Positions 1,701 to 49,782 of a stretch of 64,000 bases of DNA are shown here, piece after piece; the stretch's first letter is position 1; every line of letters begins with the position of its first letter. The position numbers and the translations under genes are program-made. Location: positions 85,725 to 149,724 of the forward strand of contig JACPZE010000020.1 in the NCBI GenBank assembly GCA_016195685.1, in the 5' to 3' direction. This DNA is from Candidatus Gottesmanbacteria bacterium (GTDB lineage: Bacteria; Patescibacteriota; Microgenomatia; 2-02-FULL-39-11). The notes below the pieces were generated by a model that saw only the letters and a program-made list of their open reading frames with translations, had not been told where the DNA came from and ran no database searches.

Positions 1701-1714
1701 CAGAAAGGAAAAAT

Positions 1715-2683: not shown

Positions 2684-2721
2684 CAATGAATTTGATCTAA
2701 AGTGATAGATAATGAATAACG

Positions 2722-4820: not shown

Positions 4821-4828
4821 TTTCCAAA

Positions 4829-6337: not shown

Positions 6338-6339
6338 TT

Positions 6340-7092: not shown

Positions 7093-8266
7093 GAAGAAAA
7101 TGGTTTATGTATTTTATGCTATAGTTCTTTTTCTCACCACTATCTATTCCTACTCACAGATAGATTTAAACCTGACTCTTTCTTCCAATCAGTTATACCA
7201 AAATATACAACATCAGCTTATATTGCTGGGATACTATAATCGGCCGCTATCAATGGTAATTTTAGTTGTTTTATTGTTTTTTTTGTATTTAATCTATTTA
7301 TCAATCTTATTATTGATTAGGAAAAATCAACTTTCCAAACAAAATATCTTTCACTTAGTTTTTTTAACTAGCTTGATACTATTTTTTTCTTATACTATTT
7401 TTTCACATGACCTTTTCAATTATATGTTCGATGCCAGAATTGTAACTATTTACCATCAAAATCCCTATATTCACTCTGCATTGGATTTTCCTTCTGATCT
7501 GTGGACTCGTTTTATGCATTGGACTCACAGGACATATCCTTACGGGCCTATATGGTTACTTATAACTTTACCGTTTTCATTTTTGGGATTTGGTAAATTC
7601 GTTCTGACACTTTTCAATTTCAAATTTTTGTTTACTCTTTTTCATTTGGGCAATGTTTATTTTATCTATAAGATACTTACAAAACTTAATCCTAAATTAT
7701 CATTATTAGGGACAGCCCTCTATGCATTCAACCCCGTTGTCTTAATTGAATCACTGGTGAGCCCCCATAATGAGGTTGCAATGCTTTTTTTCCTTCTTTT
7801 AGGAATATATTTTATATCTTCAGGAAAAAACAGCGCAATGTCAATTTTAAACCTTTTACTGTCAGCTGGAATTAAATTCGCAACTATTATATTGTTACCA
7901 CTTTTCCTTTTTATAAAAATTGCTGATAAACCTGATAAATATATGCATAGAATATTACTTTTTCTTCTTATAATGGTCCTGCCGGTGATTTTGGAAATTA
8001 TCTATAGGGAACCATATTCATGGTATTTTATTCCTTTAATAGGGATGGGGGCATTGTTAGTGAAATACTCAAGAATAAATATTTTGATATCTGGGATTTC
8101 TCTGGCAGCATTTCTACGGTACCTACCATTTATTTATACAGGAGACTACAGTAGACCGGTCAGAAATGTGCAGGATTTAATTTTTATTTCCACTATTTCT
8201 ATAACTATTTTAATTATATTTATTTATTCATTTACTCAAAAAATGATTAATAAAAAGATTAAGTGA
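7073..8266 (+). CDS. Polytopic integral membrane protein, possible GT-C-type glycosyltransferase (family uncertain; alternative ATG start at 7100)
   Basis: About 10 TM helices. Conserved-looking loop HDLFNYMFDARIVTIYHQNPY...HWTHRTYPYGPIWLL. No soluble domain. Confidence 0.4.
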   Translation: MGFIINKKKMVYVFYAIVLFLTTIYSYSQIDLNLTLSSNQLYQNIQHQLILLGYYNRPLSMVILVVLLFFLYLIYLSILLLIRKNQLSKQNIFHLVFLTSLILFFSYTIFSHDLFNYMFDARIVTIYHQNPYIHSALDFPSDLWTRFMHWTHRTYPYGPIWLLITLPFSFLGFGKFVLTLFNFKFLFTLFHLGNVYFIYKILTKLNPKLSLLGTALYAFNPVVLIESLVSPHNEVAMLFFLLLGIYFISSGKNSAMSILNLLLSAGIKFATIILLPLFLFIKIADKPDKYMHRILLFLLIMVLPVILEIIYREPYSWYFIPLIGMGALLVKYSRINILISGISLAAFLRYLPFIYTGDYSRPVRNVQDLIFISTISITILIIFIYSFTQKMINKKIK

Positions 8267-8293
8267 GATCAATGTTATAATTGAATTTGGAAT

Positions 8294-9784
8294 ATGGAGC
8301 TACTTGTAATTCTTATCATCGCATTAGGCACTTTTTTTACCAGGATAATTAATCTTCTTAAAATTCCTATCTTCACCGATGAAGCAATTTATATACGATG
8401 GGCACAGATCGGTTTGGCTGATCCGGCACACCGGTATATTTCACTGACAGACGGGAAACAGCCTTTACTTATTTGGCTTATGTATCCAATGTTGAAAATA
8501 TTCTCAGATCCGCTTTTTGCCGGGCGTTTTGTATCAGTATTGTCAGGTATTTTTACAGTTATCGGAATGTATTTCCTCACCCGTGAATTATTTGGGAAAA
8601 AAGAAGCGATCCTGGCGTCTTTAATTTACATTTTTTCACCTTTTACCCTTCTTTACGACCGGTTAGCCCTTTATGACAGTTTACTTGCTGGATTCGGAGT
8701 CTGGAGTTTATATCTCAGCGTTCTTTTGGTTAGAAAAAATAGGTTGGATGTTGCACTGCTTTTGGGTATAACAACTGGTTTGGGTGTGCTTACGAAGTCA
8801 TCAGCCCTTTTTTTCCTCTTTCTATTACCTTTCAGTTTGTTTCTTTTTGATTTCAAAGCGGAAGATAGAGTGAAAAAATTATTTATTTTGATGGGACTAT
8901 CTTTAATAAGTTTTGTGATTGCTCAAATCATGTATAACAGCCTTAGACTTTCTCCATGGTTTTATATTATACGGCAGAAGAATTATTCATTTGTTCTGAC
9001 CTTTTCAGAGTTTTTAAAAAAACCATTTGAGTTGTTTATGCCCAATCTTCATGGACTAGTACCAATATTGTTTACTTACTTAACTATTCCAATTTTATTA
9101 GTAATCATTTATGGTTTAGTTAGGGGAATATTGACTCGCGATAAGAAAATATTGTATCTTTTCTTCTGGTTTGTTATTCCGTATCTTGCTCTTGCCGCAA
9201 TCGGTAAGGTAATTTTCCCCAGGTTTATACTCTTTATGGTTATCCCACTTTTTGTAATTGCATCAAAAAGTATATTAGATATAACAAGCAAATTCGGCAA
9301 AAATAATAAGTTGATGTTAATAACTGTTTTATTCATATTGACTTATCCAATTTACCAAAGCGTATTGTTAATTTATAATCCGGTAGACGCTGAGATACCT
9401 ATCTCAGACAAAAATCAATTATTTAATGATTGGCCCTCAGGATATGGAGCAAAAGAAGTTATAAACTTTATAAACGAAAAAGCTATGAAGGAAAAGGTAG
9501 TATTGGGGACAGAAGGTACTTTTGGGCTTAATCCGGCTGTATATGAAATATACCTAAAAAGCAATAAAAATATAGATATACGCAGTTATTGGCCAGTAGG
9601 AGAGGTGCCGAAAGATTTATTAGAGTCTTCGAAAGGTTATCCGACATATTTAGTATTTAAAGAAACACAAAATATTCCCGGCAATTGGCCGTTAAAACTT
9701 ATAGCAAAATACCGTCGGGGTAAAGGAGATACGTTCCTGCTTTTTTATCAGGTGGAATCCAGGGATAAAAATAGTTTAAAATAG
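8294..9784 (+). CDS. GT-C glycosyltransferase, ArnT/PMT_2 (GT39/GT83-like) family
   Basis: N-terminal loop TDEAIYIRWAQ...DGKQPLLIWLMYP...FAGRFVSVLSGIFTV matches the DE...KPPL...R-PSAL pattern of ArnT-like enzymes. Multi-TM with a C-terminal soluble domain. Confidence 0.65.
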   Translation: MELLVILIIALGTFFTRIINLLKIPIFTDEAIYIRWAQIGLADPAHRYISLTDGKQPLLIWLMYPMLKIFSDPLFAGRFVSVLSGIFTVIGMYFLTRELFGKKEAILASLIYIFSPFTLLYDRLALYDSLLAGFGVWSLYLSVLLVRKNRLDVALLLGITTGLGVLTKSSALFFLFLLPFSLFLFDFKAEDRVKKLFILMGLSLISFVIAQIMYNSLRLSPWFYIIRQKNYSFVLTFSEFLKKPFELFMPNLHGLVPILFTYLTIPILLVIIYGLVRGILTRDKKILYLFFWFVIPYLALAAIGKVIFPRFILFMVIPLFVIASKSILDITSKFGKNNKLMLITVLFILTYPIYQSVLLIYNPVDAEIPISDKNQLFNDWPSGYGAKEVINFINEKAMKEKVVLGTEGTFGLNPAVYEIYLKSNKNIDIRSYWPVGEVPKDLLESSKGYPTYLVFKETQNIPGNWPLKLIAKYRRGKGDTFLLFYQVESRDKNSLK

Positions 9785-9799
9785 AAGTAGTTTGATATT

Positions 9800-11428
9800 A
9801 TGAAAAGACTGCTGCCCTTCATAGTAATATTTTTTGTAGTACTTATTTATACCAAACCTTTTTTCCGTCCCGGTTTTTTCCCCACTCATGACGGTGAATG
9901 GGCGATAGTACGTTTAGCAGAGATGCAAAGGGAAATAAAGGATTTACAGATTCCTCCCCGATGGGCTGATTATTTAAATCATGGTTACGGTTATCCTCTT
10001 TTTAACTTTACTTACCCTTTTCCGTTTTATGTTGGTACTGCATTAAGATTTTTTCATATAGGACTTACAGATAGTATCAAAATCATATTTGTGGCCAGTG
10101 CCGTTTTATCTGCTTTGTTTATGTTTCTTTTAGGTCGAGAACTGGGAGGGGAATATGCAGGGCTTCTTGCAGCTATATTTTATAGTGTTGCACCATTTAG
10201 GCTGGTAGATCTTTATATACGCGGATCCATAGGAGAGTCTTTGAGCCTTGCTATTTTTCCAATGCTTTTTTATCTGAGTCTGAAATTTATCCTCAAACCC
10301 AGTTTAATGAAAATGTCATTATGTTCAGTTGTTCTTGCGACTCTTATTCTTTCTCATAATATAATGGCTTTGGTTTTTTTCCCATTTTGGATTGTTTTTT
10401 TATACGTGTGTCTTATTTCATATTACGAAGATATAAAGTTCTACACATGGCGTTATTTTCTGCCGATGATCGCATTGGGCCTTGGTTTAGCAGCATATTT
10501 TTTCATACCTGCACTCGCAGAAAAGCAATTAGTTTTATTATCACAGGTAAAATTGGCAGACGTATCTTCAAATTTTATCAATATCAGTGATTATCTCCTT
10601 TCTCCATGGAATTACGGAATCAAACCTTCATATCAACTAGGTTGGGCTCATATTTTGGCTGGCATTTTAGCAATTATAAGTCTTATATTATCGAAAGATA
10701 TAGATAAGAAGAAATTTTGGCCCCTTTTAATTTTTATTTTGGGAAGCGTGTTTATCCTGATATTTTATGCTCATCCATTTTCCGCCGAATTTTGGAATGT
10801 ACCTCCTCTTTCGTGGTTTGACTTTCCATGGAGATTTCTCACCCCTCTGGCTTTTTTCCTGGCCCTCTCAACCATATTTCTTCCAATACATAAAGTAACT
10901 AAATTTATCGGCGGCGTTTTAGCAATCTTAACAGTAATTTTGAGTATTAATTTTGCTTCTCCACCGACTTTTATAAATAATCCTGATGCATACTATGCGA
11001 CCAACGATGCGACTACGACCTCCATGGATGAGTTAATGCCTAATTGGGTTATCAATAAACCAACCAACCGCTACGGACAAAAAATCGAGGTAGAACAAGG
11101 TAAGGCTCAACTCTATAATTTAGAATATAAATCAAACTCCATTAAATTTCGAGTTATCTCACAATCTCCAAGTATAGTAAAAGTGAATACGATTTATTAT
11201 CCAGGATGGAAATTCTATATAAATGACAAAGAAATTACTGTAAATTACAAAAGTCCCGATGGGCTTATAAGATTTGAAGCCCCTTCGGGCAATATGGGAG
11301 TTACTGGTTTGTTTAAAGAAACAAGTTTAAGATTTTGGAGTAATATTATTTCAGCTTTGAGTTTCACACTTATTATTCTGTTTTTTATATTCTCTTTGGT
11401 TAAGTGGGTAAGACTAAAGTTTGTATGA
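9800..11428 (+). CDS. YfhO/PTPS-related-family polytopic membrane protein (putative GT-C glycosyltransferase), paralog A
   Basis: N-terminal FPTHDGEW...QIPPRWADYLNHGYGYPLFNFTYPFPFY and C-terminal [17 protein letters not shown] motifs are shared with the ORFs at 11425 and 47366, and resemble the C-terminus of the long YfhO-like ORF at 26486. Confidence 0.55.
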   Translation: MKRLLPFIVIFFVVLIYTKPFFRPGFFPTHDGEWAIVRLAEMQREIKDLQIPPRWADYLNHGYGYPLFNFTYPFPFYVGTALRFFHIGLTDSIKIIFVASAVLSALFMFLLGRELGGEYAGLLAAIFYSVAPFRLVDLYIRGSIGESLSLAIFPMLFYLSLKFILKPSLMKMSLCSVVLATLILSHNIMALVFFPFWIVFLYVCLISYYEDIKFYTWRYFLPMIALGLGLAAYFFIPALAEKQLVLLSQVKLADVSSNFINISDYLLSPWNYGIKPSYQLGWAHILAGILAIISLILSKDIDKKKFWPLLIFILGSVFILIFYAHPFSAEFWNVPPLSWFDFPWRFLTPLAFFLALSTIFLPIHKVTKFIGGVLAILTVILSINFASPPTFINNPDAYYATNDATTTSMDELMPNWVINKPTNRYGQKIEVEQGKAQLYNLEYKSNSIKFRVISQSPSIVKVNTIYYPGWKFYINDKEITVNYKSPDGLIRFEAPSGNMGVTGLFKETSLRFWSNIISALSFTLIILFFIFSLVKWVRLKFV

Positions 11429-13149
11429 AAGGTTATCAACGGCGTGTTTTATACTTAATTTTAGTTATAATATTTTCTTTTTGGACTGTAAAACCACTCT
11501 TTCACGAAGGCTTTTTCCCCATGCATGATGATACTCAGCCTGCTCGCGTTTATGAGATGGCTCAAGCACTATCCCACGGTCAATTTCCGGTAAGATGGGT
11601 AGGAGATTTAGGATATGGATACGGATACCCTCTATTTAATTTTTATGCACCTTTGCCTTATTATACAGGTGCAATTTTCAATCTGATAGGATTTGATTCG
11701 ATTGTTTCTACAAAAATAATGTTTTTTATCGGAATTATCCTGGCAGGCATAACGATGTTTTACTTATTAACTAATCTAGTTGGTGAAGCAGGAGCATTGG
11801 TAGGAAGTCTGTTATACATGTACGCTCCTTATCATGCCATAGATATTTACGTTCGGGGAGCTGTGAGCGAGATTTATGCAATTGGGTTTTTGCCTTTGTT
11901 TCTTGCAGGTATTTATAGAATTTTTTCTAGTAAACTCGTAACACATCACAAGAATAATTTATTTAATTTAATCCCAACTTTAAAGTCTGATAAAGAAATT
12001 AAAAAAGGAATTTTAACAAGCATAATAGGTTTTGCGGTAATATTACTTTCTCATAATCTTATGGGGATGATCGTAATAGAATTTTTTATTGTGGGGATGA
12101 TTGTTTATTTTCTGTTTCATTTATTTAAAAGACAAAATCCAACAAAACTGTATTTATTAATGACAGTTTTCCTAATAGGATTAGGTATTTCTTCTTTTTT
12201 TATTCTTCCGGCATTTGCTGAGAAAAATTTTACTCGCATCAATGAATTGATTACCGGAGGTAGCAAATTTAGTGACCATTTTGTATATCTTGATCAATTA
12301 TGGAGTAGTCCCTGGGGATTTGGAGGTTCAGCTTTGGGTCGTGCTGATGGTATGTCTTTTATGATCGGTAAAATCCATCTATTATTAGGAATTTTATCTA
12401 TTCCGGTAGTTTTAATCTTTCATAAACGCAAAAAAATAAATAACTTTCAATTTTCTATTTTTTCCTCGCAACTAATACTTTTTGTAATTTCTGTTTTTCT
12501 TGTACTTGATATTTCCGGTTATATTTGGGCTTTAATGCCAGGATTTGCTTATATTCAATACCCTTGGAGATTTTTGGCTATTTCTATTTTCAGTATCTCT
12601 GCAATGATTTCCTTCATAGTAGTTTGTCTTAGGAAAGAGATTCAATTAATTTTTTGCATTGTTTTTATTTTATTGATGATATGGTTTAATTCAAGATATT
12701 TTGTTCCAAAAGAATATCTTCCTCTCAAACAATCAGATTACACAAGCAACCTGAATCTTCGGTATAAAATTTCTAAAATATCAGACGAATATTTGCCGTA
12801 TGATTTTATAATCCCAAAATCAACATATGAAATAGCATTGCAGGGCATAAATTCTTCTCCTGATTTTAAGGTAAAATATTTTTCAGATACTCCGGTAAAG
12901 AAATTATTTAATATTGAATCTGCTGCTAGTAAATCTTTGCAGACAAATGTTGCTTATTTTCCAGGTTGGCAGGTGAAAATAGATGGTTTCGATACAACTT
13001 TAAAATCTAGAAACGGTCGAATTGAAATTTTTATTCCACAAGGCCAACATAGTATTGAATTTAACCTTCGCAATACTTTCATACGGATACTATCAAATAG
13101 TATTTCCATATTTGCCCTTTTTTTGCTAGTATATATCATTGTTTTGTGA
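11425..13149 (+). CDS. YfhO/PTPS-related-family polytopic membrane protein, paralog B
   Basis: FPMHDDTQPARVYEMAQ...QFPVRWVGDLGYGYGYPLFNFYAPLPYY and C-terminal VAYFPGWQVKIDGFDT. The ATG at 11425 forms an ATGA overlap with the upstream stop; the track start 11404 lies further upstream. Confidence 0.55.
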   Translation: MKGYQRRVLYLILVIIFSFWTVKPLFHEGFFPMHDDTQPARVYEMAQALSHGQFPVRWVGDLGYGYGYPLFNFYAPLPYYTGAIFNLIGFDSIVSTKIMFFIGIILAGITMFYLLTNLVGEAGALVGSLLYMYAPYHAIDIYVRGAVSEIYAIGFLPLFLAGIYRIFSSKLVTHHKNNLFNLIPTLKSDKEIKKGILTSIIGFAVILLSHNLMGMIVIEFFIVGMIVYFLFHLFKRQNPTKLYLLMTVFLIGLGISSFFILPAFAEKNFTRINELITGGSKFSDHFVYLDQLWSSPWGFGGSALGRADGMSFMIGKIHLLLGILSIPVVLIFHKRKKINNFQFSIFSSQLILFVISVFLVLDISGYIWALMPGFAYIQYPWRFLAISIFSISAMISFIVVCLRKEIQLIFCIVFILLMIWFNSRYFVPKEYLPLKQSDYTSNLNLRYKISKISDEYLPYDFIIPKSTYEIALQGINSSPDFKVKYFSDTPVKKLFNIESAASKSLQTNVAYFPGWQVKIDGFDTTLKSRNGRIEIFIPQGQHSIEFNLRNTFIRILSNSISIFALFLLVYIIVL

Positions 13150-13156
13150 GTACACT

Positions 13157-13894
13157 ATGAAAAAAACTTCAGTTGAAATAGTAGTTCCTATTTATAATGA
13201 GGAAAAAGAGTTGGAAAGCAGCGTAGATAAACTTTATTCGTTTGCCCAGCAGAATTTACTTTCTTATGATTGGCATATTACTGTAGCCGATAATGCATCC
13301 ACAGATAATAGTTTCTCTATAGCACAAAAAATGGTTAAACAAAAACCTCATTTGGGATGTATGCACCTGGATCAAAAAGGCAGGGGCCGTGCAGTCAAAA
13401 AAGTATGGAGAAAAAGTATTGCAGATATTTTGGTGTATATGGATGTGGATCTCTCGACAGATTTGAAAAATCTACCCTCCCTTGTAGCGGCACTTGAGAA
13501 TAATTATGATATTGCTATTGGCTCAAGACTTTTACCAAAGTCGAAAGTTCTAAATAGACCTTTGAAACGTGAAGTTTTATCGCGTATCTATAACGTTTTG
13601 ATAAAAATATTTTTTCAGGTTCACTTTTCAGATGCTCAGTGCGGTTTTAAAGGTATTACGAGGAAAGTGGTAGATGATCTTTTACCCTTTATCGTAGATG
13701 ATGCATGGTTTTTTGATAGTGAACTTTTAATCGTTGGTGAAAAAGTTGGATTTAAAATTTACGAAGAACCGGTTCGATGGGTTGATAATCCGGGATCAAC
13801 AGTCAGAGTGCTCTCGACAGTCTCAGGTGATCTAGCGGGATTATGGCGATTATTTTGGGATAGGCCTTGGTGTAGATATAAAAATAATAAATAA
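13157..13894 (+). CDS. GT2 glycosyltransferase (DPM1/GtrB-like polyprenol-phosphate sugar synthase candidate)
   Basis: VEIVVPIYNEEKEL ... TVADNASTDNS ... DVDLSTD. The ATG at 13157 is 8 bp after the upstream stop. Confidence 0.7.
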   Translation: MKKTSVEIVVPIYNEEKELESSVDKLYSFAQQNLLSYDWHITVADNASTDNSFSIAQKMVKQKPHLGCMHLDQKGRGRAVKKVWRKSIADILVYMDVDLSTDLKNLPSLVAALENNYDIAIGSRLLPKSKVLNRPLKREVLSRIYNVLIKIFFQVHFSDAQCGFKGITRKVVDDLLPFIVDDAWFFDSELLIVGEKVGFKIYEEPVRWVDNPGSTVRVLSTVSGDLAGLWRLFWDRPWCRYKNNK

Positions 13895-13895
13895 A

Positions 13896-14930
13896 ATGAA
13901 AAATCTATTAATTACAGGTGGAGCAGGGTTCATTGGATCAAATCTGGCATCCTTTTTTCTAAAAAAAGATTATTCAGTGACCATATTTGATAACTTTGAG
14001 CGAAAAGGAACAAAACAAAATTTATCATGGCTAAAAAACCAATTTCCAAAATTAATAGTAGTAGAAGGTGATATAAGAAATAAAAAGGATTTAGATGCTG
14101 TAGTTGTTGGAAAGGAAGCGCTTTTCCATCTGGCAGCACAAGTTGCTGTAACCACTTCAGTTACTGACCCAAAAACTGATTTTGATATAAATGCACTAGG
14201 CACTTTTAATCTTTTAGAGTCGGTTCGCCAATACGGCAATAAACCTCTCGTAATTTTTTCTTCAACCAATAAAGTTTATGGTGAAATGGAAGACCTCGGA
14301 GTAGTTGAACAAAAAACACGTTATATGTATAAAGCTTTGCCTTACGGAATATCAGAAACAACCTGTCTAGATTTTCATTCTCCATACGGTTGTTCAAAAG
14401 GAGCAGCTGATCAGTATGTAAGAGATTATGCAAGAATTTATGGAATTCCAACGGTTGTCTTCAGACAATCATGCATTTACGGCCCTAATCAGTTCGGTAT
14501 AGAAGATCAAGGATGGTTAGCTTGGTTTATTATCGCCTTGTCTTTAGATCACGATATTACTATCTATGGAGATGGTAAACAAATCCGGGATGTTTTATAT
14601 ATAGACGATCTTGTACGTCTTTTTGATCTTGTTCTTGAAAATAAGGGAAAAGTGACCGGACAAATTTACAATGTGGGAGGTGGCATAAACAATACGATTT
14701 CTGTTTGGAGCGAATTCGGTCCCATACTGGAAAAATTATTTGGTAAAAAAATAAATCCCAAATTTTCTGGATGGCGTCCTGGTGATCAGAAAGTATATAT
14801 TAGTGATATAAGACATGTAGAAAAAGAATTGGGATGGAAACCAAAAATTAGCGTTGAAGAGGGTATAAGTATGCTATTTAAGTGGATCCAGATAAATAAA
14901 TCAATGCTTAAAAGCATATTATTTCAATGA
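13896..14930 (+). CDS. CDP-paratose 2-epimerase-like NAD-dependent epimerase (RfbE/Prt family)
   Basis: LITGGAGFIGSNLASFFL ... FDNFERKGTKQNLSWLK ... DFHSPYGCSKGAADQY ... DQGWLAWF closely match the Salmonella CDP-tyvelose/paratose epimerase pattern as I recall it. Confidence 0.7.
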   Translation: MKNLLITGGAGFIGSNLASFFLKKDYSVTIFDNFERKGTKQNLSWLKNQFPKLIVVEGDIRNKKDLDAVVVGKEALFHLAAQVAVTTSVTDPKTDFDINALGTFNLLESVRQYGNKPLVIFSSTNKVYGEMEDLGVVEQKTRYMYKALPYGISETTCLDFHSPYGCSKGAADQYVRDYARIYGIPTVVFRQSCIYGPNQFGIEDQGWLAWFIIALSLDHDITIYGDGKQIRDVLYIDDLVRLFDLVLENKGKVTGQIYNVGGGINNTISVWSEFGPILEKLFGKKINPKFSGWRPGDQKVYISDIRHVEKELGWKPKISVEEGISMLFKWIQINKSMLKSILFQ

Positions 14931-16051
14931 ACAAATACAAAAAAATTCTAGTCACTGGTGGAGCCGGGTTTATCGGATCTCATTTAGTGGACAAGCTTAT
15001 TGAAAATGGGTATGAGGTGAGAGTATTGGATAATCTTTTTAAACAGATTCATCCTTCTGGTCATCTTCCAGCTTATTTCAATAAAAAGGCACATTTTTTA
15101 AAAGGAGATGTGACAAATAAAGAGAATTGGTTAAAGGCATTAGATGGAATAGATGGAGTATTTCATTTTGCTGCAGCCGTAGGAGTAGGTCAAAGTATGT
15201 ATGAAATTGAGCATTATGTAAGAGTAAATTCTTTGGGTACTGCAATTCTGTTGGATATACTTGCGAATAAAAAGCATAACGTCAAAAAAATAATTGTTGC
15301 AGCTTCCATGAGTTCATATGGTGAAGGTACTTATAAGTGTAAAAATTGCGGTCTGATAAGACCCCCTTTAAGAAATGAAAAACAGTTAGAAAAACAAGAT
15401 TTTAATGTTTATTGTCCGCAATGTAGTCAAATAGTAGTTCCCGTTCCTACTAGTGAAGATGCAAAACAGAACTGTAATTCTATATATGCAATCAACAAGA
15501 AAAATCAGGAAGAAATGGTTTTAAACGTGGGTATGGCATACAGGATTCCTGCTGTGGCACTGCGATATTTTAATGTTTATGGTACAAGACAAAGTTTATC
15601 CAATCCTTACAACGGAGTCGTTGCGATTTTTATGAGCAGAATCAAAAACAATAGGCCTCCTATTATAAATGAAGATGGATTGCAAACAAGAGATTTTATA
15701 CACATCAGGGATGTCACTGCAGCAAACATTGCTGCACTTGAAGAAGATGAGGCAAATTATGAAGTATTTAATGTAGGTTCTGGTATGCCGGTTACTATAA
15801 AAAAGATAGCGGAACTTTTGGCGCAGATTTATAAGCGAAATATCAAACCGGATATCACTTCCAAAACAAGAAAACTTGATGTGAGACATTGTTATGCTGA
15901 TATAACGAAGATAACAGATTGTTTAGGTTGGCAACCGAATATGGATTTAGAAAAAGGATTATTAGAGGTTGTTGACTGGTCTCAACAAGAAAAATCAGTA
16001 GATAAATTAGATTTTGCACTACAGGAGCTTGCCAAAAGAGGATTGCGATGA
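14927..16051 (+). CDS. NAD-dependent epimerase/dehydratase (extended SDR) carrying an inserted CxxC...CxxC zinc-ribbon-like segment
   Basis: VTGGAGFIGSHLVDKL, catalytic SMSSYGEG and YAINK (YxxxK). A ~30-aa insert YKCKNCGLIRPP...VYCPQCSQ with four Cys sits between them. Confidence 0.7.
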   Translation: MNKYKKILVTGGAGFIGSHLVDKLIENGYEVRVLDNLFKQIHPSGHLPAYFNKKAHFLKGDVTNKENWLKALDGIDGVFHFAAAVGVGQSMYEIEHYVRVNSLGTAILLDILANKKHNVKKIIVAASMSSYGEGTYKCKNCGLIRPPLRNEKQLEKQDFNVYCPQCSQIVVPVPTSEDAKQNCNSIYAINKKNQEEMVLNVGMAYRIPAVALRYFNVYGTRQSLSNPYNGVVAIFMSRIKNNRPPIINEDGLQTRDFIHIRDVTAANIAALEEDEANYEVFNVGSGMPVTIKKIAELLAQIYKRNIKPDITSKTRKLDVRHCYADITKITDCLGWQPNMDLEKGLLEVVDWSQQEKSVDKLDFALQELAKRGLR

Positions 16052-16788
16052 AGATTTCCTTTATTATCCCCTTTCACAACGAAGAAAAAAATTGTCAACC
16101 TATGCTGAAAAAGGTTTTGGAATTTGCACAAAAACAAAAATTTTCATATGAGATTATACCCGTTGATGATAGAAGTACAGATAAAACAAAAATAATTTTG
16201 CGAGATTTTGCTTCACATAACAAACATATTAAACCTCTGTATCGTAAAGACGATAAAGAAGAAAAAGGAAACACCATGGGAAAAGCACTGCTGGAAGGAA
16301 CGATGAAAGCAGAAAACCCAATAATTATTTGGACGATGGGTGATCTTGCTGATGATACAAAAACATATCTAGATATAATTGAAAAAATTAATAGCGGTTT
16401 TGATATTGTTTTCGGATCAAGATATATGCCTGGTGGTTCCCGTGGAAATCTTGATTTACTTAAAGCATTCTTAAGTTCCTGGGGTACAAGAATGGCCCAA
16501 TTTTTTTTCGGAGTGCCAGTACACGATATCACGAACGCATTTCGCGGTTTTAGAAAAGAAATAATTACTCATTTAGAGCTTAAATCAACAGGATTTAGCA
16601 TTTCACCGGAATTTGCTATAAAAGCTCATCTTGCCGGTTTTAAATTGGGAGAAGTTCCTACTGTTTATATCAATAGAGTAGAGGGGGTTTCCAGTTTTAA
16701 ATTATTTAAGATGACAAAGAATTATCTCAAACTTTATTTGGATTTGTTTTGGCAGTTTAACATACTTCAAAAATCAGCTTATCAATGA
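16048..16788 (+). CDS. GT2 glycosyltransferase (DPM1-like)
   Basis: ISFIIPFHNEEKN ... IIPVDDRSTDKT ... GDLADD DxD motif. 246 aa. ATGA overlap with the upstream gene. Confidence 0.7.
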   Translation: MKISFIIPFHNEEKNCQPMLKKVLEFAQKQKFSYEIIPVDDRSTDKTKIILRDFASHNKHIKPLYRKDDKEEKGNTMGKALLEGTMKAENPIIIWTMGDLADDTKTYLDIIEKINSGFDIVFGSRYMPGGSRGNLDLLKAFLSSWGTRMAQFFFGVPVHDITNAFRGFRKEIITHLELKSTGFSISPEFAIKAHLAGFKLGEVPTVYINRVEGVSSFKLFKMTKNYLKLYLDLFWQFNILQKSAYQ

Positions 16789-17177
16789 AAATAATATTCA
16801 ATAAGAAATTAAAATATTCTCCTGCATCTCACGAAAATCCTCTTCATCGAGTAGCTTTTAAAAAAATTATTTTTACACAAAAAGATATTATGAAAGATGG
16901 AAAAATTCAGATGATTAATTGGGCAAAACTGATAAAAGGTAAATCTTTTGTACCTCATTATCATGAAGATATGGAAGAAATTTTTATAATCATAAAGGGA
17001 AGAGCTACAATTACTGTAGATAAAGAGAAAAAAGATTTAAATTCAGGCGATTCTGTATTGATTCCGCCAAAAGCAATACATGAAATGAAAAATATATCAT
17101 ATAGTGACGTAGAATATCTAGTTATAGGTATTACTTTAGGAATCGGTGGAAAAACAATAGTTACCAAAAAATTATGA
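16785..17177 (+). CDS. Cupin-domain protein (cupin_2)
   Basis: Two-His/Glu cupin motifs: FVPHYHEDMEEIFIIIKG and DSVLIPPKAIHEMKN. 130 aa. Confidence 0.6.
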   Translation: MKIIFNKKLKYSPASHENPLHRVAFKKIIFTQKDIMKDGKIQMINWAKLIKGKSFVPHYHEDMEEIFIIIKGRATITVDKEKKDLNSGDSVLIPPKAIHEMKNISYSDVEYLVIGITLGIGGKTIVTKKL

Positions 17178-18565
17178 AAACAAACATAAATATCAAATCG
17201 ATCATATTATTTTTAGTGTTTTCGATTTTTGTCAGCCTATTTTTATACAGATCGACAATCAATGCTTATTTTTTCCAAGATGATTGGTTTACGTTAAGAA
17301 TCAGTCAGGTAAAAAACTTAAGTGAGTTTTATCAATTTTTTATTCCCAGAAATGATATTATTTATTACCGTCCGTTAGGCATGCAGGTACCGTTTTTTAT
17401 TCTCCGATTGTTGTTTGGTTTAAATCCGTTGCCTTTTCATATTCTGACTATAGTCACTCATGCAGTAAATATAGTGCTGGTTTATTTACTCATTCGCTTA
17501 ATTAGAAAAGATTCTTTCACAGCGTGTTTAAGTAGCTTCCTATATGCCGTTTCCGCAATTCATTATATACCTATGTTTTGGTCATCTACCTATGCTTTTA
17601 TTTTGGGCCCTACATATGCCGTTGCTTCTTTGATTTTTTTTATTTTGTCTTTCCGAAAAAAGGAAAACCTATTTTACTGTTTGTCTTTAGTTTCATTTTT
17701 CATTGGATTGTTTGTAAACGAAATGTTAACAGTACTGCCTATAATTTTACTTTTGACGCAATTTTATTTTAATAAACTGAACATAAAAAGATTGTTGCCG
17801 TTTTTTTTGACGGTATTTATATTACTTACTTGGCGTTTTTATATTTTTCCTCCACCGGTAAGAGATGCATACCAATTAGGTATCGGAAAGGAACTGCTGA
17901 ATAATATAAAAGCTTATATATTATGGAGTTTCAATTGGCCTGAGGAAATGAAGGCTCAATTCATAACATTTTTTAATATAAACCCACAGTTTATCAGGGA
18001 ATTTTCATGGTATTTTTGGCCATTCATTATAACTTTTCTTACCAGTATTATTCTAATGTTTTTGATTCCACTTTTTCTGATTTTTTCAAAGGGTTACCAT
18101 TTAGGGAAATTGCTTATCTATAGTTCGCTTTGGTTTATTACAGGACTTCTGCCGGTTATTTTTTTCACCCAACATTCATTTTCATATTATCTGCCGATTT
18201 CTATTATCGGTTTGCTTCTTCTTCTATCATCAATGTTTAAATATCTATTTGATTTAATTCATAAAACGAGTAAGGAACTCGCTTTTATATTGATTATGAT
18301 TTTGTTGATTAATTGGAGCTATTGTACTTATATTACCATTGACTTTAACGCAAAAATTCATTGGGCTCCGAGGAGGGCAGAACTTTCAAAAACTCTTGTC
18401 ACAGAAATAGAAAAGAATTATCCTAGGTCTTTGAAAAAGGTAATACCTGTTAGCGGATCATCCGAAAACCGTCTCGCACTGAATAATCAAGATGCATTGA
18501 AAGTGATTTATAATGATGAGAGTATAGTAACTGCTTATGAATATCCTCAAACTAATTCAAAGTAA
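17174..18565 (+). CDS. Polytopic membrane protein, ArnT/GT39-like GT-C glycosyltransferase candidate
   Basis: About 11 TM helices. Loop YFFQDDWFTLR...IIYYRPLGMQVPFFILRLLFGLNPLPFHIL resembles ArnT-like first-loop architecture. Confidence 0.45.
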   Translation: MKTNINIKSIILFLVFSIFVSLFLYRSTINAYFFQDDWFTLRISQVKNLSEFYQFFIPRNDIIYYRPLGMQVPFFILRLLFGLNPLPFHILTIVTHAVNIVLVYLLIRLIRKDSFTACLSSFLYAVSAIHYIPMFWSSTYAFILGPTYAVASLIFFILSFRKKENLFYCLSLVSFFIGLFVNEMLTVLPIILLLTQFYFNKLNIKRLLPFFLTVFILLTWRFYIFPPPVRDAYQLGIGKELLNNIKAYILWSFNWPEEMKAQFITFFNINPQFIREFSWYFWPFIITFLTSIILMFLIPLFLIFSKGYHLGKLLIYSSLWFITGLLPVIFFTQHSFSYYLPISIIGLLLLLSSMFKYLFDLIHKTSKELAFILIMILLINWSYCTYITIDFNAKIHWAPRRAELSKTLVTEIEKNYPRSLKKVIPVSGSSENRLALNNQDALKVIYNDESIVTAYEYPQTNSK

Positions 18566-19679
18566 AAAGATACAATCGGTGCTTTGGTGGATATTATTCA
18601 CGCTGATAATTACCAAGTTGCTTTTTTACTTAATATCAAATAGACAGTTTTTTACTAGAATTTTCGATCCTGTCTATTATGGTGATCTATATTCCAAATC
18701 ACAATATGTAGTGGGATCAAGATCCGTAGGCGGCATTGGTGATGATGGATTGTATGCCTTTGCAGGATATTATTATTTATTCCAAAAAGGTGATGTCTCT
18801 GCAGTGAATTTTGAGCACCCGCCGTTAGGAAAATATCTAATAGGTTTGTCGATACTAATTTTTCGGAATGAAAATCTCATCAATATAATTTATTTTTCGA
18901 TATTGTTATTTGTTACTTATAAAATCGGGAATATAATACTTAAAAATAAACTGCTGTCATTACTATCGGTAGGGATAATCTCTTTTGACCCCCTTTTTTT
19001 GGATAATCTTATCAGATCACTTTTGGATTTACCGTTCACGCTGTTTTTTATACTCGGGATATATTTTTTTCTTATGAGTTTGCACAATGCCAAATATCAT
19101 TATTTTTCAATGCTTTTCTGGGGGATATCTTTTTCGACGAGATTTTTCCCAGCATTATTAATAATTTATGGATTCCTGTTTTTAGTGATTTTTCTGTATA
19201 AACGAAAAGATCTCTCAATATTGATTAAAGCCTCATTTTTAATACCTATTGTTTATCTCCTTTCACACATATCTTTTTTTGTATACCATCCGTCACTGGT
19301 AGAATTCTTGCGGCATAAAAAATGGATGTTGGCTTGGTTTACCGGATCACCGAAAATATTTGGAAATATCTGGCGGAACATTTTTACAGGGTTTTATATT
19401 GATACTACGAATAAATTAATGAAAAATGAATTTTGGATACTCTTAATTCCGATTATTATTATATTTTCGCTAATCCCCACAGTGAAAATTCAGAAAAAAA
19501 ATAGTCTAGAGTTTATAGTGTTATATGGATTAAATATTTTGTATCTAGCCTATGTAACGATTCTAACGGACGGTAATCAAAAATTCATGATGCCTATATA
19601 TCCAATGCTTTGTATTATGGCTGTAAGTAATTTTACCCTTTTGTATAGTATAATAGCCTCATGGAAGAAGTCGAATTAG
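18537..19679 (+). CDS. PMT-family (GT39) membrane mannosyltransferase-like protein
   Basis: DDGLYAFAGYYYLFQKGD...NFEHPPLGKYLIGL matches the DE...HPPL(A)K signature loop of protein O-mannosyltransferases. It is much shorter (380 aa) than eukaryotic PMTs. Confidence 0.55.
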   Translation: MNILKLIQSKKIQSVLWWILFTLIITKLLFYLISNRQFFTRIFDPVYYGDLYSKSQYVVGSRSVGGIGDDGLYAFAGYYYLFQKGDVSAVNFEHPPLGKYLIGLSILIFRNENLINIIYFSILLFVTYKIGNIILKNKLLSLLSVGIISFDPLFLDNLIRSLLDLPFTLFFILGIYFFLMSLHNAKYHYFSMLFWGISFSTRFFPALLIIYGFLFLVIFLYKRKDLSILIKASFLIPIVYLLSHISFFVYHPSLVEFLRHKKWMLAWFTGSPKIFGNIWRNIFTGFYIDTTNKLMKNEFWILLIPIIIIFSLIPTVKIQKKNSLEFIVLYGLNILYLAYVTILTDGNQKFMMPIYPMLCIMAVSNFTLLYSIIASWKKSN

Positions 19680-21184
19680 CGATAATAAAAGGAAAGATAG
19701 TCAAAGGCGTTGCAGCTTTAATCTCCAGAACCTTTATTATTCAAGTCATTACTCAGATAGCCAACTTGGTTCTTCTTGCATTATTATCACAATACGAATA
19801 CGGGATTTATTGGATAGTTATAGCTATAATCTCGTTTCTTTCGTATTTTTCGGATATAGGTCTTGCGGCAGCGTTAATACAAAAAAAAGAAGATCCTACG
19901 CGGCAGGATTTAGTCACAGCTTTTACAATTCAGCAAATATTAGTTGGAATCATAGTAATTTTCACTTTTGTTTATACGCCTTCTCTAAGCTCATTTTTCC
20001 ATCTGACTCAAGATACTGAATTTGTGATAAGAGCTTTTATAATATCCTTTTTCCTTTCCTCATTGAAAACTATTCCATCAGTTATTCTTGAAAGAAAGCT
20101 GGATTTTACCAAACTTATTTTGCCTCAAATTTTTGAGACAGCTGCTTTTTATTTAGTTACTATTATTTTGGCTCTATCGAATTTTGGTGTAGCAAGTTTT
20201 GCGTGGGCAGCAGTAGTTAGGGGAATCGTTGGGCTAGTTGCGATTTATCTCATTAATCCTTGGCCCATAGGAATTGGTATTTCAAGAAAATCAATTCGTC
20301 ATTTGTTAACTTTTGGAATTCCTTTTCAGCTGAACTCATGCTTGGCACTTATAAAAGATGACTTGATGACTTTATTTCTGGGGCGAATACTTAGCTTCAG
20401 CAGAGTTCATTTTATTCCCCCAACAGTAGCTTGTGCGAAAGCTCCTAACATATGTGAAATTGGTTATATAGGTGTAGCAAAGAGAAATGCTGAAATTTCT
20501 CTTAAGTTGGTTATGGATAATGTTATTAGAGTAACTTTTCCAGTATATTCCAGACTCCAAAAAGATATGGAAATTTTAGGTAAAGCTGTACAAAAATCAT
20601 TAACTTTCTTAGCATTGCTGATAATTCCATCAAATATTATCTTAGCGATATATATAAAACCTATAATGCATTTGATACCAAAATATGCGAAATGGGAACC
20701 GACACTTTTTTCATTTTATTTCTTTTCTTTTTCTTCTGTGATGTCCTCTTTTTCTACACCATTATTTAATGCACTCAATGCAATTGGAAAAGTTAAAACG
20801 ACTTTGATTCTTATGATTTTTTGGACGACTCTAACTTGGATTTTGTATCCAATTTTTGTTTACTTTTATGGATATAATGGAGTCTCCATGGCTGCATTTG
20901 TAATCTCATTTACGGCTATTATTCCTGTATTTATAATGAAAAAGTTCGTTCAATTTTCCGTAATCTCATCTCTGTATAAACCCGTAATAATTTCTTTTAT
21001 AACAGCATTACCGGCATTTATTCTCATGAAATTATCACAAGACTTGCTATTGGTTATATTTTCTCTAGCTTTAACTTTTGGCATATATACTTTACTGGTA
21101 TGGCTTTGGATGGGAGAGGATGTTAGACCATACCTGCCTCATCAGTTGGCAGGTTTGCCAAAATTCTTCAAGCGCAACAAGTGA
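19661..21184 (+). CDS. wzx: Wzx-type oligosaccharide flippase (MOP/polysaccharide biosynthesis protein family)
   Basis: N-terminus KGVAALISRTFIIQVITQIANLVLLALLSQYEYGIYWIV...DIGLAAALIQKKE is typical of Wzx/PST proteins. About 12-14 TM helices. Confidence 0.7.
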   Translation: MEEVELAIIKGKIVKGVAALISRTFIIQVITQIANLVLLALLSQYEYGIYWIVIAIISFLSYFSDIGLAAALIQKKEDPTRQDLVTAFTIQQILVGIIVIFTFVYTPSLSSFFHLTQDTEFVIRAFIISFFLSSLKTIPSVILERKLDFTKLILPQIFETAAFYLVTIILALSNFGVASFAWAAVVRGIVGLVAIYLINPWPIGIGISRKSIRHLLTFGIPFQLNSCLALIKDDLMTLFLGRILSFSRVHFIPPTVACAKAPNICEIGYIGVAKRNAEISLKLVMDNVIRVTFPVYSRLQKDMEILGKAVQKSLTFLALLIIPSNIILAIYIKPIMHLIPKYAKWEPTLFSFYFFSFSSVMSSFSTPLFNALNAIGKVKTTLILMIFWTTLTWILYPIFVYFYGYNGVSMAAFVISFTAIIPVFIMKKFVQFSVISSLYKPVIISFITALPAFILMKLSQDLLLVIFSLALTFGIYTLLVWLWMGEDVRPYLPHQLAGLPKFFKRNK

Positions 21185-22851
21185 AAAAATATCTTATACT
21201 TTTGCTTTTTATTATTTCTTTTTCGCCATCAAATGTTTTAGCTTTTGAAACGAATCATTATGTGACTATAGTTCATCCGGTCAGGGGAAGAAATCTCTGG
21301 CAATCAGATGAATCCGTAAAAAACCAGATCAACCTGATAAGAAAGAATCACCTTCCATCGACATGGTTACTACAGTATGACGTCATTACTGATAACCAAA
21401 ACTCAAAGTTGTTTAAAGAATTACCCGTTAATCAGGAGTTAGGCGTTTTCCTTGAAGTGAGTGAGAGGCTTGCTACAGACTCAAATGTTCCCTATATATA
21501 CGGAAGTGGAGATTGGGCTCGAGCCGATAAAGTTCTTTTTTCTGGTTATACCCCTGCTGAACGAGAACGGATGATAGATATTCTTTTTGAAACATTTAAG
21601 GATAGATTTGGATACTACCCTGTATCTGTCGGGGCATGGTATATCGATACTGTATCACTTAATTATTTATCACAAAAATATAAAATTAAGGCTGCCATGG
21701 ATGTATCGGATCAATATCAAACAGACACTTATGGTGTATGGGGTCAACCCTGGGGGGCGCCTTATTATCCATCTCAATTTAACTCAATTATGCCTGCAAA
21801 TAGTATTGCCGATCGTTTGGATATGGTGAAAATTCAATGGGCTGCCAGGGATCCTGTTCGTGGATATGGGTTAAAAGCTACAGATTCCATATACAGCGTA
21901 CAGGCGAATGATTATGTTGGAAACAACTTGAATACCACTTATTTCCAAAAACTTGCTCAAGCATACCTCTTATTTCCTAATCCAATTACCCAACTAACAG
22001 TTGGATTAGAAGCCGGTCAGGAAGGTGCAGTTTATTATGATGAGTATGAGAAACAATTAAGCTTTTTGGTCGATCTTGCCCAAAAAGAAAATTTATCCTT
22101 CCTTACAATGTCATCTTTTGCAAAAGATTATCAAAAACAGTTTCCAAATTATTCACCAAGTTTTTTTGTCCATGATACCGATGTTTCAAATCCTCATATT
22201 GAAGCGTTTTGGTATTCAAACAAGTCTTATCGTATCGGGTTATTACTGAAGGATAAAAGTTTATTTATAAGAGACCTACGTCTATATAATATTCCATTCC
22301 TTTATGGTGATATCTTCACAAACGATAAAAATCACTTATTGAAAAGAGTAATTCCTGCAATTATAGATGAAGCTTTAAATCATAATGAAATAATGTTGAT
22401 GTCTCATATTAATAAAATTGACTTACAACGGGATGGGGACAATCTTTATTTACTATTGGTAGACGAAGCGGGTAGTAAACATAAAATATCTTTTACCAAT
22501 GAAAGTATATTATTAGATCAAAAACAGGTTTTAAAAACTCCAAAGATGGCGAATTATATCACGCAAATATTAACTAAAGTATTGATGTCATATTGGATAA
22601 ATTACCCCCATAGCTGGATTGGCGGCTGGAGATATTCATCTATCGAAGGCAAATTTTATTTATGGTTTATGATAAAACCCGATAGATTAATAGGTATAAA
22701 ATCGGAAATGCCCTTTTTAGGGATTTTTAAATTTCCATTTCAGGTACTTGTACGGTTCAAAAGTCTGCCTCAAATAGATCTTTCAAGATTAATTAGTGTT
22801 TATTTGGTGAATAGAATAAACCATAGTACAATCAAATTAACCGTAAATTAA
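21181..22851 (+). CDS. Secreted hypothetical protein with N-terminal signal peptide (function unknown, possibly glycan-active)
   Basis: GTG start overlapping the upstream stop (GTGA). MKKYLILLLFIISFSPSNVLAFE looks like a Sec signal peptide. The rest is soluble and aromatic-rich (AWYIDTV...YGVWGQPWGAPYYPSQFN), with no family I can assign confidently. Confidence 0.4.
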   Translation: MKKYLILLLFIISFSPSNVLAFETNHYVTIVHPVRGRNLWQSDESVKNQINLIRKNHLPSTWLLQYDVITDNQNSKLFKELPVNQELGVFLEVSERLATDSNVPYIYGSGDWARADKVLFSGYTPAERERMIDILFETFKDRFGYYPVSVGAWYIDTVSLNYLSQKYKIKAAMDVSDQYQTDTYGVWGQPWGAPYYPSQFNSIMPANSIADRLDMVKIQWAARDPVRGYGLKATDSIYSVQANDYVGNNLNTTYFQKLAQAYLLFPNPITQLTVGLEAGQEGAVYYDEYEKQLSFLVDLAQKENLSFLTMSSFAKDYQKQFPNYSPSFFVHDTDVSNPHIEAFWYSNKSYRIGLLLKDKSLFIRDLRLYNIPFLYGDIFTNDKNHLLKRVIPAIIDEALNHNEIMLMSHINKIDLQRDGDNLYLLLVDEAGSKHKISFTNESILLDQKQVLKTPKMANYITQILTKVLMSYWINYPHSWIGGWRYSSIEGKFYLWFMIKPDRLIGIKSEMPFLGIFKFPFQVLVRFKSLPQIDLSRLISVYLVNRINHSTIKLTVN

Positions 22852-22856
22852 AGTCT

Positions 22857-23762
22857 ATGATTTCTGCTGTTGTTCATACCTATAACGAGGAAAAAAACAT
22901 CGAACGCTGTCTGTCTTCGCTTTCTTTCGTTGACGAGATCGTACTGATAGATATGGATTCAAAAGATCGTACAAGGGAAATTGCATCCAATTACAAAGCG
23001 AAAATATTTAATCATCCTTATACTGGATTTGTAGAGCCTGCTAGAAATTTTGGCATTCAAAAAGTTCTTGGATCTTGGGTTTTGATAGTGGATGCGGATG
23101 AAGAAATATCGAAAACTTTAGCTGATAAACTTATTTCTATTTCAAGAGAGAAGCGGGTCGACTATTGTCGAGTAGCAAGAAAGAATATAATTTTTCACAA
23201 ATGGATTAAGCATTCTGGTTGGTGGCCCGATTATCAGATCCGATTTTTTAAAAAGGGATGCGTATCTTGGAGTGAGAAAATTCACGGTGTCCCGTTGACT
23301 CGCGGAACTGGCTTAGATTTAGAAGCAAATTCAGATTTAAGCATAAGTCATTATAACTACCAAACAATAGAGCAATACATCGCTAGGTTGAATCGGTATA
23401 CAAATATTTCCGCGAAAGAATTTTTTTTGTCGAATAAAAAATTTTCTTATCGTGATGTGGTAAATCTCTCAAGTAAGGAATTTATCAATAGATACTTAGT
23501 GTGGGAAGGATATAAAGATGGTATTCACGGCTTAGCCTTAGCCTTTTTGCAGTCATTATCCGAAGTAGTAACTTATTTAAAATTGTGGGAGTTAGAAAAT
23601 TTTAAAGAGGAGCGAATTTCTTTATTGGAATCAAAAGAGGTAATATCTGATGGGCAAAACGAAACTCAATATTGGTTTTATAACACTCTTCTTAAAGAAC
23701 CGCATGATTTTATCAGTGATTTGATTTGGAGATTAAAAAGGAAATTATCTCAGCATGGATAA
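22857..23762 (+). CDS. GT2 glycosyltransferase (paralog set with 24681 and 49015)
   Basis: ISAVVHTYNEEKNIERCLSSLSFVDEIVLIDMDSKDRTREIA ... VDADEEI. Confidence 0.7.
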   Translation: MISAVVHTYNEEKNIERCLSSLSFVDEIVLIDMDSKDRTREIASNYKAKIFNHPYTGFVEPARNFGIQKVLGSWVLIVDADEEISKTLADKLISISREKRVDYCRVARKNIIFHKWIKHSGWWPDYQIRFFKKGCVSWSEKIHGVPLTRGTGLDLEANSDLSISHYNYQTIEQYIARLNRYTNISAKEFFLSNKKFSYRDVVNLSSKEFINRYLVWEGYKDGIHGLALAFLQSLSEVVTYLKLWELENFKEERISLLESKEVISDGQNETQYWFYNTLLKEPHDFISDLIWRLKRKLSQHG

Positions 23763-29688: not shown

Positions 29689-29716
29689 GTTAAATTGTTA
29701 TGCTAAAATACCAATT

Positions 29717-31393: not shown

Positions 31394-31404
31394 TTTCAAA
31401 AACC

Positions 31405-37260: not shown

Positions 37261-37391
37261 AAATATGAAAGATTAATCTGCTAAATTTATTTAAGTTAAT
37301 CCATTAAATTATAGATTTATGGATAAATACGGTATTATAAATGATAATAAAGATATACATAAGATGACCGAGTAGGAGATTTTATAACCTT
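37261..37391 (+). promoter_or_regulatory. 131-bp AT-rich intergenic spacer, the largest in the locus; candidate internal promoter/RBS region
   Basis: Contains TATAAT-like hexamers (ggtattataaat), an 8-bp palindrome GATTAATC, and a GGAG Shine-Dalgarno-like motif ~12 nt before the ATG at 37392. Confidence 0.3.
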
Positions 37392-41005: not shown

Positions 41006-41006
41006 A

Positions 41007-44227: not shown

Positions 44228-44236
44228 AATACAAGA

Positions 44237-49770: not shown

Positions 49771-49782
49771 TTTTAGGATAAT

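Follow-up and report, generated by a model that had tools for sequence, protein, structure and literature searches.

What are four cysteines, paired and spaced as in a zinc ribbon, doing between the catalytic residues of a sugar-nucleotide epimerase? The question is raised by a gene at positions 14927..16051 (+) of a 64-kb stretch of DNA from Candidatus Gottesmanbacteria (contig JACPZE010000020.1), referred to here, over its whole length, as the window. The gene product belongs to the extended short-chain dehydrogenases/reductases (SDRs); few enzyme families are as well studied as the sugar-nucleotide enzymes of this class, which, to our knowledge, are regarded as metal-free. Here, we propose that residues 135–173 of this protein probably form a structural zinc ribbon, Zn(Cys4/Cys3His), which would stabilize a family-specific cap and would not be catalytic.

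The open reading frame (ORF) translates without interruption into a 374-amino-acid protein that contains VAASMSSYGEGTYKCKNCGLIRPPLRNEKQLEKQDFNVYCPQCSQIVVPVPTSEDAKQNCNSIYAINKK and matches, at 100% identity, an NCBI protein from Candidatus Gottesmanbacteria, a member of the Candidate Phyla Radiation (CPR; Patescibacteria). The cysteines are Cys138, Cys141, Cys163 and Cys166 (codons 15338–15340, 15347–15349, 15413–15415 and 15422–15424), located between the serine block VAASMSSYGEG and the YAINK motif, with a spacing of exactly CxxC-x21-CxxC. A preliminary description made from the sequence alone had reported an insert at this point. Its residue numbers and x21 spacing are exact, its coordinates (15335..15425) are right within one codon, and the peptide it quoted, Y136..Q168, spans 15332..15430. 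The full insert of about 39 residues, delimited by profile breaks, a GalE alignment and an AlphaFold2 (AF2) model, covers residues 135–173 (15329..15445, +). The Pfam profile PF01370 matches in two pieces, residues 7–136 (profile positions 1–124) and then from about residue 173, and the GalE profile TIGR01179 breaks at the insert and restarts at residue 173. Aligned with Thermotoga maritima GalE (TM0509; 4zrm), residues 4–134 correspond to 3–128 and residues 174–351 to 133–306, with 39 residues replacing a four-residue loop. Because both profile matches split here and 4zrm has a four-residue loop at this point, the segment is a true insert, and the translation, the split matches and the 4zrm alignment all bear out its placement between the serine block and YxxxK.

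No solved SDR relative (88 with E ≤ 1e-10) aligns across the insert, which upholds the further claim that canonical SDR epimerases lack such an element. A PDB sequence search with the insert and its flanks likewise found no chain aligning through it; the only cysteine-rich match, HscB, had an E value of 0.16, which is at chance level. The best solved match to the model is 4zrm itself (Foldseek E 2e-30; template modelling (TM) score 0.76 when normalized to the query, 0.91 when normalized to the target), and Foldseek with the AF2 model returned GalE-like folds only, with query TM scores that do not exceed 0.76 for the top matches or 0.77 for any of the 50 listed. GalE-type enzymes (TM0509; WbpP, 1sb8) share the NAD motif and the Ser–Tyr–Lys triad with the window protein, but have a four-residue loop where it has 39 residues, and no metal site. 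Mth375 (6pmh, 368 amino acids) was considered as a solved relative with an insert and was set aside, since its TM score of 0.72 and root-mean-square deviation of 6.5 Å are no better than those of GalE.

The rest of the protein is familiar. Its PF01370 score of 166 bits (cutoff 20.9) places it in the extended SDRs, and the translation, Pfam and NCBIfam matches and homologues together identify the gene as a WbiB/Tle-like extended SDR of the nucleoside diphosphate (NDP)-sugar epimerase type. The NAD-binding Rossmann motif TGGAGFIGS (residues 10–18; 14954..14980, +) falls in invariant alignment columns, and the Ser–Tyr–Lys triad is present: Tyr187-x3-Lys191 of YAINK (15485..15499, +), read from translation and alignments, is invariant in the subfamily at both residues, and the catalytic Ser127 (15305..15307, +) is found in at least 90% of sequences. 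The product scores below the cutoff of every curated NCBIfam equivalog, including that for GalE (TIGR01179; 159.4 bits against 262.3, the match being split in two by the insert). On its sequence, the window enzyme is an ordinary NAD-dependent Ser–Tyr–Lys 4-epimerase-type SDR apart from the insert.

That the four cysteines form a metal site is suggested by their conservation. The protein has more than 100 homologues at 64–84% identity, nearly all equal to it in length, and all four cysteines are kept in 111 of 120 such sequences, which answers the conservation check proposed with the preliminary description. The exceptions are four with C-x2-H and one with C-x2-D at the first knuckle, and four in which all four cysteines are gone together and the insert is full length. 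In a small subgroup of CPR homologues 69–71% identical to the window protein (P0098, P0103, P0107 and P0108), YxCKNCG has become YH/WFxxKG and YCPxC has become YYPGT. With insert length unchanged, the alignment suggests that the metal site was lost very recently, and this subgroup is suited to a direct comparison of zinc and zinc-free forms.

The same pattern holds at greater distance. When 1.84 billion cluster representatives (50% identity) were searched exhaustively with HMMER, 2,875 matched below 1e-30, and inserts were classified in the best 150 of these, which are 38–56% identical to the window protein. The majority align in one stretch across the insert. Sixty-two have CxxC..CxxC and 35 have CxxH..CxxC, with few intermediates; about 37 have an insert of the same length with no or one cysteine, and in four to seven (the number varies with the length cut-off) the loop is short or the insert absent. 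Among 98 ligand-bearing representatives, positions 138 and 163 are cysteine in all 98, position 141 is cysteine in 61 and histidine in 34, and position 166 is cysteine in 96 and histidine in two. Ligands that are close to all-or-none, together with Cys-to-His exchange at one position, are typical of a zinc site, as judged from alignment columns.

These counts also bear on two other accounts of the cysteines. They might be incidental, binding nothing and remaining within lineages as a tolerated feature of a self-folding insert; indeed, about a quarter of representatives have a cysteine-free insert of the same length, which means that the cysteines are not strictly required for the fold. However, the four positions are 96–100% Cys or His in the ligand-bearing group although the sequences are only 38–56% identical, losses are nearly all-or-none, and the pattern C..C.{10,40}C..C appears in just 101 of 200,000 shuffles of the window protein (a chance expectation of 5e-4), which together leave this account extremely improbable. 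The pattern is found in one of the 52 window ORFs, and cysteine makes up 1.9% of the 374-residue protein as against 0.57% for window proteins. Alternatively, the cysteines could be redox-active, forming a rubredoxin-like Fe(Cys)4 site or else a thiol/disulfide switch through which the redox state gates epimerase activity. Rubredoxins and thiol-disulfide oxidoreductases likewise have CxxC pairs as their motif, the insert has a weak Pfam likeness to rubredoxin-like domains (RUBY_RBDX, E 0.018; Zn_ribbon_LapB, E 0.17), and CPR bacteria are largely anaerobic. A redox role is nevertheless very unlikely: histidine takes the place of the second ligand in four close CPR homologues and in 35 of the 97 representatives with a complete ligand set, so strict Cys4 ligation does not hold, and a histidine here fits zinc rather than rubredoxin iron or a disulfide. 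Moreover, all four cysteines have been lost repeatedly with catalytic residues intact, the cysteine-less enzymes WbiB and Tle are fully competent, and by established SDR chemistry NAD-dependent epimerization needs no external electron carrier.

The history of the proposed zinc site can be approached through its distribution. On a neighbour-joining tree built with the insert columns excluded, Fitch parsimony places a ligand-bearing state at the root and requires roughly 25 state changes across 141 tips, whereas shuffled states need 36.7 on average. This indicates an ancestral metal-site form in the family, followed by many independent losses. In a sample of GTDB genomes, insert-bearing members occur in Planctomycetota, Acidobacteriota, Chloroflexota, Sumerlaeia, Binatia and Rokubacteria, and also in Omnitrophota, Bacteroidota, Alpha- and Gammaproteobacteria and Actinomycetota. 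Members from Streptomyces have CxxH..CxxC and those from Mycobacterium are cysteine-less, as are plasmid-borne copies from Sinorhizobium meliloti (pSymB) and Fuscovulum. The CxxH..CxxC form is consistent across six actinomycete loci (L023, L027, L022, L026, L021 and L018, from Streptomyces, Allonocardiopsis, Dactylosporangium, Microthrixaceae and an unclassified Actinomycetota metagenome-assembled genome); the actinomycete members have no C-terminal helix and offer cultured sources of the ligand-bearing Cys3His form.

The insert is not peculiar to the window gene. WbiB of Burkholderia thailandensis (UniProt Q2SYH7) is 34% identical to the window protein (pairwise E 3e-66) and, like Tle (MAB_4111c) of Mycobacterium abscessus, is a dTDP-L-rhamnose 4-epimerase (EC 5.1.3.25; KEGG K17947). 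Both share with the window protein the extended-SDR scaffold, an insert of similar length at the equivalent position, an alignment that runs through the insert, a Ser–Tyr distance of 60 residues and equivalents of S127, Y187, K191, N216 and R255. The spacing of these five residues is identical to that of Tle S121, Y181, K185, N210 and R249, and S127, Y187, N216 and R255, aligned with S121, Y181, N210 and R249, do not vary in the alignment containing WbiB and Tle. In Tle the catalytic residues are S121, Y181 and K185, and mutagenesis has demonstrated that S121, Y181, N210 and R249 are needed (JBC 2024, PMC11549994). Unlike the window protein, WbiB and Tle have neither CxxC knuckles nor a C-terminal ELxxRGL helix. 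All 120 mycobacterial Tle orthologues examined also count as cysteine-less, with no cysteine in 89, one in 29 and two in two. The sequence comparisons thus identify the insert as the hallmark of a large, multi-phylum WbiB/Tle subfamily. The preliminary description had allowed that the insert might prove a common feature of a well-characterized subfamily, and this is half the case, because the insert is common but the WbiB/Tle subfamily is lightly characterized, with two enzyme assays and no structure.

The insert itself has been noticed once before, with the metal site unmentioned. In the AlphaFold model of Tle, residues 128–165 were described as an ‘extended secondary structure element’ consisting of an additional helix, a loop and β-strands; the paper mentions neither zinc nor cysteine, and reports that the yield of Tle was too low for structural analysis (PMC11549994). 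The sequences of WbiB and Tle are given in its supplement, and both are active epimerases without the cysteine ligands (PMC11549994). Literature searches (WbiB and zinc; SDR epimerase and zinc ribbon; extended SDR and structural zinc) found nothing relevant and no paper linking extended SDRs to a structural zinc site. The metal-binding version is, by its ligand pattern, the majority form in the family and no description of it was found in the literature searched, seemingly because both studied enzymes have lost the cysteines. The Joint Genome Institute (JGI) name ‘dTDP-L-rhamnose 4-epimerase’ is attached to close homologues of the window protein, cysteine-bearing and cysteine-less alike. At a sequence identity of 33–34%, the window enzyme need not share the substrate of WbiB and Tle.

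If the metal has been lost so often, what has the insert retained? Within it, the putative zinc knuckle 1 (C138-K-N-C141-G142; 15338..15352, +) is followed by an RPPLR motif ending in Arg149 (15359..15373, +), which is conserved in zinc-type and cysteine-less representatives, by a short helix predicted at residues 151–155 with a conserved Leu154 (15377..15391, +; AF2 model and alignment), by Phe159-Asn160 (15401..15406, +) and by the putative zinc knuckle 2 (C163-P-Q-C166; 15413..15424, +), for which the family consensus in the alignment is C-P-x-C-G. Arg149 is kept irrespective of the cysteines, in 95 of 98 zinc-type and all 29 cysteine-less representatives, and is invariant in the alignment with WbiB and Tle. 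The same is true of an aromatic residue at position 159 (97 of 98 and 29 of 29, and also in WbiB and Tle), which is W, F or Y in 126 of the 127 representatives and usually has Glu or Asp next to it. Tyr136 and Leu154 are likewise conserved independently of the cysteines. Because Arg149 and the aromatic residue are conserved with or without the cysteines, the function of the insert appears independent of the metal, which from its distribution looks like a stabilizing device, and these two residues are the best candidates, on conservation, to touch the NDP-sugar or anchor the cap. The preliminary description had suggested either a structural role or one in partner interaction or regulation; the structural role is favoured, and the dispensability of the cysteines in many lineages argues against a catalytic or an obligatory regulatory one.

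In the mechanism that we favour, the cap would elaborate the loop that joins the catalytic-serine strand to the first strand of the substrate-binding domain. It would consist of two CxxC knuckles on β-hairpins bridged by a short helix, with one structural Zn2+ held by Cys138, Cys141, Cys163 and Cys166. In most lineages the Zn2+ would clamp the two hairpins and rigidify the cap, with no part in the chemistry, whereas elsewhere it would be replaced by packing or by turn motifs, D-P-x-T-G-E among them. The functional core of the cap, kept where the cysteines are lost, would be Arg149 and the aromatic residue 159, and an ancestral zinc form would have been repeatedly replaced by a metal-free insert, including in WbiB and Tle.

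The predicted fold is in keeping with such a cap. The full-length AF2 model has a mean pLDDT (predicted local distance difference test) value of 89.2, and 81–92 per 10-residue block across residues 121–180. It places strands at 135–138 and 142–144 on either side of knuckle 1, with Cys138 and Cys141 at the turn of the hairpin, then the helix 151–155 and a strand at 171–173 that runs into a conserved P-T-x-E segment. In terms of secondary structure, knuckle 1 is on a predicted hairpin turn and knuckle 2 precedes the predicted strand 169–173; folded alone, the insert gives the same secondary structure with a pLDDT of 72.5. Pfam matches to the isolated insert, all sub-threshold, are nearly all to families of zinc ribbons or zinc fingers; Foldseek gave no significant match, and the entries at its top are what we take to be the zinc modules inserted in the Rossmann enzymes leucyl-tRNA synthetase (LeuRS) and sirtuins, and zinc-ribbon ribosomal proteins. 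The label ‘zinc-ribbon-like’ given to the insert at the outset is well chosen, given the C-x2-C-G and C-P-x-C knuckle motifs and the hairpin predicted at knuckle 1. Taken together, the modelled fold and the Pfam and Foldseek likenesses are consistent with a zinc ribbon and fall short of proof. As an aside on the same model, residues 86–90 (GVGQS; 15182..15196) are its sole segment of at least three residues with pLDDT below 50; the surrounding VGVGQSMY motif is invariant among close homologues, and the loop may be cofactor-dependent.

Several points weigh against a zinc-stabilized cap. No Pfam zinc-ribbon family reaches its gathering score with the insert: the window insert scores best with Zn_Ribbon_TF (18.3 bits; cutoff 29) and the insert of a cysteine-containing relative with Zn_ribbon_FGT1_2 (18.7 bits; cutoff 27). 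Foldseek with the isolated insert returned nothing significant from the PDB (best E 0.34). The number of independent losses drawn from neighbour joining and Fitch parsimony is a crude estimate. Finally, the putative position of the cap, on the substrate-binding domain, derives from the general topology of extended SDRs and from the continuity of the strand predicted at 169–173.

Small metal modules of this design are known in other enzymes and proteins. The LID of adenylate kinase is a Cys4 site in many Gram-positive bacteria and a hydrogen-bond network in Escherichia coli, zinc-ribbon ribosomal proteins exist in metal-bound (C+) and metal-free (C−) versions, medium-chain alcohol dehydrogenases have a structural-zinc lobe, and sirtuins and LeuRS have zinc modules inserted in Rossmann folds. 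The proposed ribbon resembles them in being a small Cys4 or Cys3His element within an enzyme that would not be catalytic and that has been lost repeatedly with the surrounding fold kept. It shares no detectable homology with them and occupies another position in the host fold; the likeness is one of design and evolutionary behaviour only.

The alcohol dehydrogenase lobe, which lies at the subunit interface, suggests another role for the insert, as a docking or oligomerization surface for a neighbouring enzyme or a second subunit, and here the genomic context is relevant. Immediately upstream of the insert-SDR gene is a second SDR (13896..14930, +) strongly homologous to CDP-tyvelose 2-epimerase (TyvE-like), identified by PDB matches (9rl0, E 5.5e-105; 1orr, E 6e-95) and recurring as a neighbour of insert-SDRs in several phyla. 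Downstream are a family 2 glycosyltransferase (GT2) resembling polyprenyl-phosphate sugar synthases (16048..16788, +), whose start overlaps the SDR stop, and a small cupin protein (16785..17177, +) that is a member of a conserved CPR block. ATGA start/stop overlaps can be read at 14927–14930 and 16048–16051, and ORF coordinates give a 4-nt overlap at 16785–16788; the overlaps suggest that the TyvE-like SDR, insert-SDR, GT2 and cupin genes are translationally coupled in one operon. The block GT2/TyvE-like/SDR/GT2/cupin is kept in other Gottesmanbacteria (L081 and L082). A TyvE-like copy, 40–51% identical, adjoins the insert-SDR in six loci from distant phyla (L001 2656–3681, L002 7883–8917, L009 3011–4024, L012 7146–8147, L017 7152–8168 and L020 7128–8153), and the pair is, by gene order and homology, a conserved two-epimerase module.

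A ribbon that docks the TyvE-like enzyme, the GT2 synthase or a second subunit would suit both the translational coupling of the gene to its neighbours and the recurrence of the TyvE-like/insert-SDR pair in distant phyla. It would also suit the position of the insert directly before helix 186–204, the counterpart of Tle helix 180–199, which is one of two helices at the predicted Tle dimer interface (PMC11549994). In addition, the family has a C-terminal helix of about 20 residues with an ELxxRGL motif (residues 355–374; 15989..16048, +), which extends past the point where GalE-type structures stop; most insert-bearing members have it, but WbiB and Tle do not. The presence of this helix is weakly associated with that of the cysteine site: in a mutual-information scan outside the insert for positions that track cysteine state, only position 361, in the helix, gave a signal, and a weak one. 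Against docking, the TyvE-like gene stands beside zinc-type forms (L001, L002 and the CPR members) and cysteine-less forms (L009, L012, L017 and L020) alike, which means that the cysteines do not track the partner, and most insert-bearing loci have no TyvE-like neighbour. We therefore regard a docking surface as rather unlikely.

The gene order also invites a question about substrate. WbiB and Tle would lead one to expect an rml-type setting, unlike that of the window gene, which adjoins a tyvelose-2-epimerase homologue. The 50 window proteins scanned, a set that excludes 12 ORFs of at least 100 amino acids and is limited to the window, gave no match to an RmlA/C/D-type Pfam domain, and a search for rml or nucleotidyltransferase genes near the gene (the same 50 proteins, and loci L002 and L012) gave only glycosyltransferases and lipopolysaccharide-type genes. 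One characterized enzyme of the CDP-tyvelose 2-epimerase family interconverts CDP-glucose and CDP-mannose (PMC7851689), and WbiB acts at C4 of a manno-configured sugar. It is a reasonable idea that the 2-epimerase may supply a manno-configured NDP-sugar from which the insert-SDR would make the talo epimer for transfer to polyprenyl phosphate. A bolder version would make the zinc ribbon, with Arg149 and the aromatic residue 159, the substrate-gating lid of an unrecognized, ancestrally metal-bearing class of extended SDR 4-epimerases that acts after the TyvE-like enzyme, converting NDP-gluco to NDP-talo sugars by 2- and then 4-epimerization, with a GT2 loading the product onto polyprenyl phosphate to serve extracytoplasmic glycosylation by CPR bacteria; this we consider decidedly improbable as a whole.

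The surroundings of the gene are rich in related functions. Almost the entire 64-kb window (1..61738, +) is an unbroken run of same-strand glycan-biosynthesis genes, which holds a UDP-glucose dehydrogenase, at least six further SDR epimerase/dehydratase genes, many GT2 and family 4 glycosyltransferase genes, and about ten large membrane proteins resembling the GT-C glycosyltransferases (PMT_2, PTPS_related, YfhO and PIG-V-like). A second ORF of 374 amino acids that follows a 251-amino-acid GT2 (50835..51959, +) was considered as a paralogue from a duplicated cassette and proved to be unrelated, being a PIG-V-like membrane mannosyltransferase.

The structural zinc ribbon that we favour would leave the known chemistry of the extended SDR class unchanged. 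What is new is a putatively ancestral Zn(Cys4/Cys3His) site, its repeated loss, an invariant arginine and aromatic core, and a conserved pairing with a TyvE-like enzyme; the pattern of loss indicates that the two members studied biochemically, WbiB and Tle, are derived metal-free forms. For annotation, the JGI name ‘dTDP-L-rhamnose 4-epimerase’ reaches relatives that are only about 33% identical to the assayed enzymes, including those in different genomic contexts. In practice, expression and crystallization of enzymes of the WbiB/Tle type may need zinc supplementation and reducing conditions. More broadly, the family offers a natural series of putatively zinc-bound and zinc-free inserts in which the replacement of a structural metal site may be studied.

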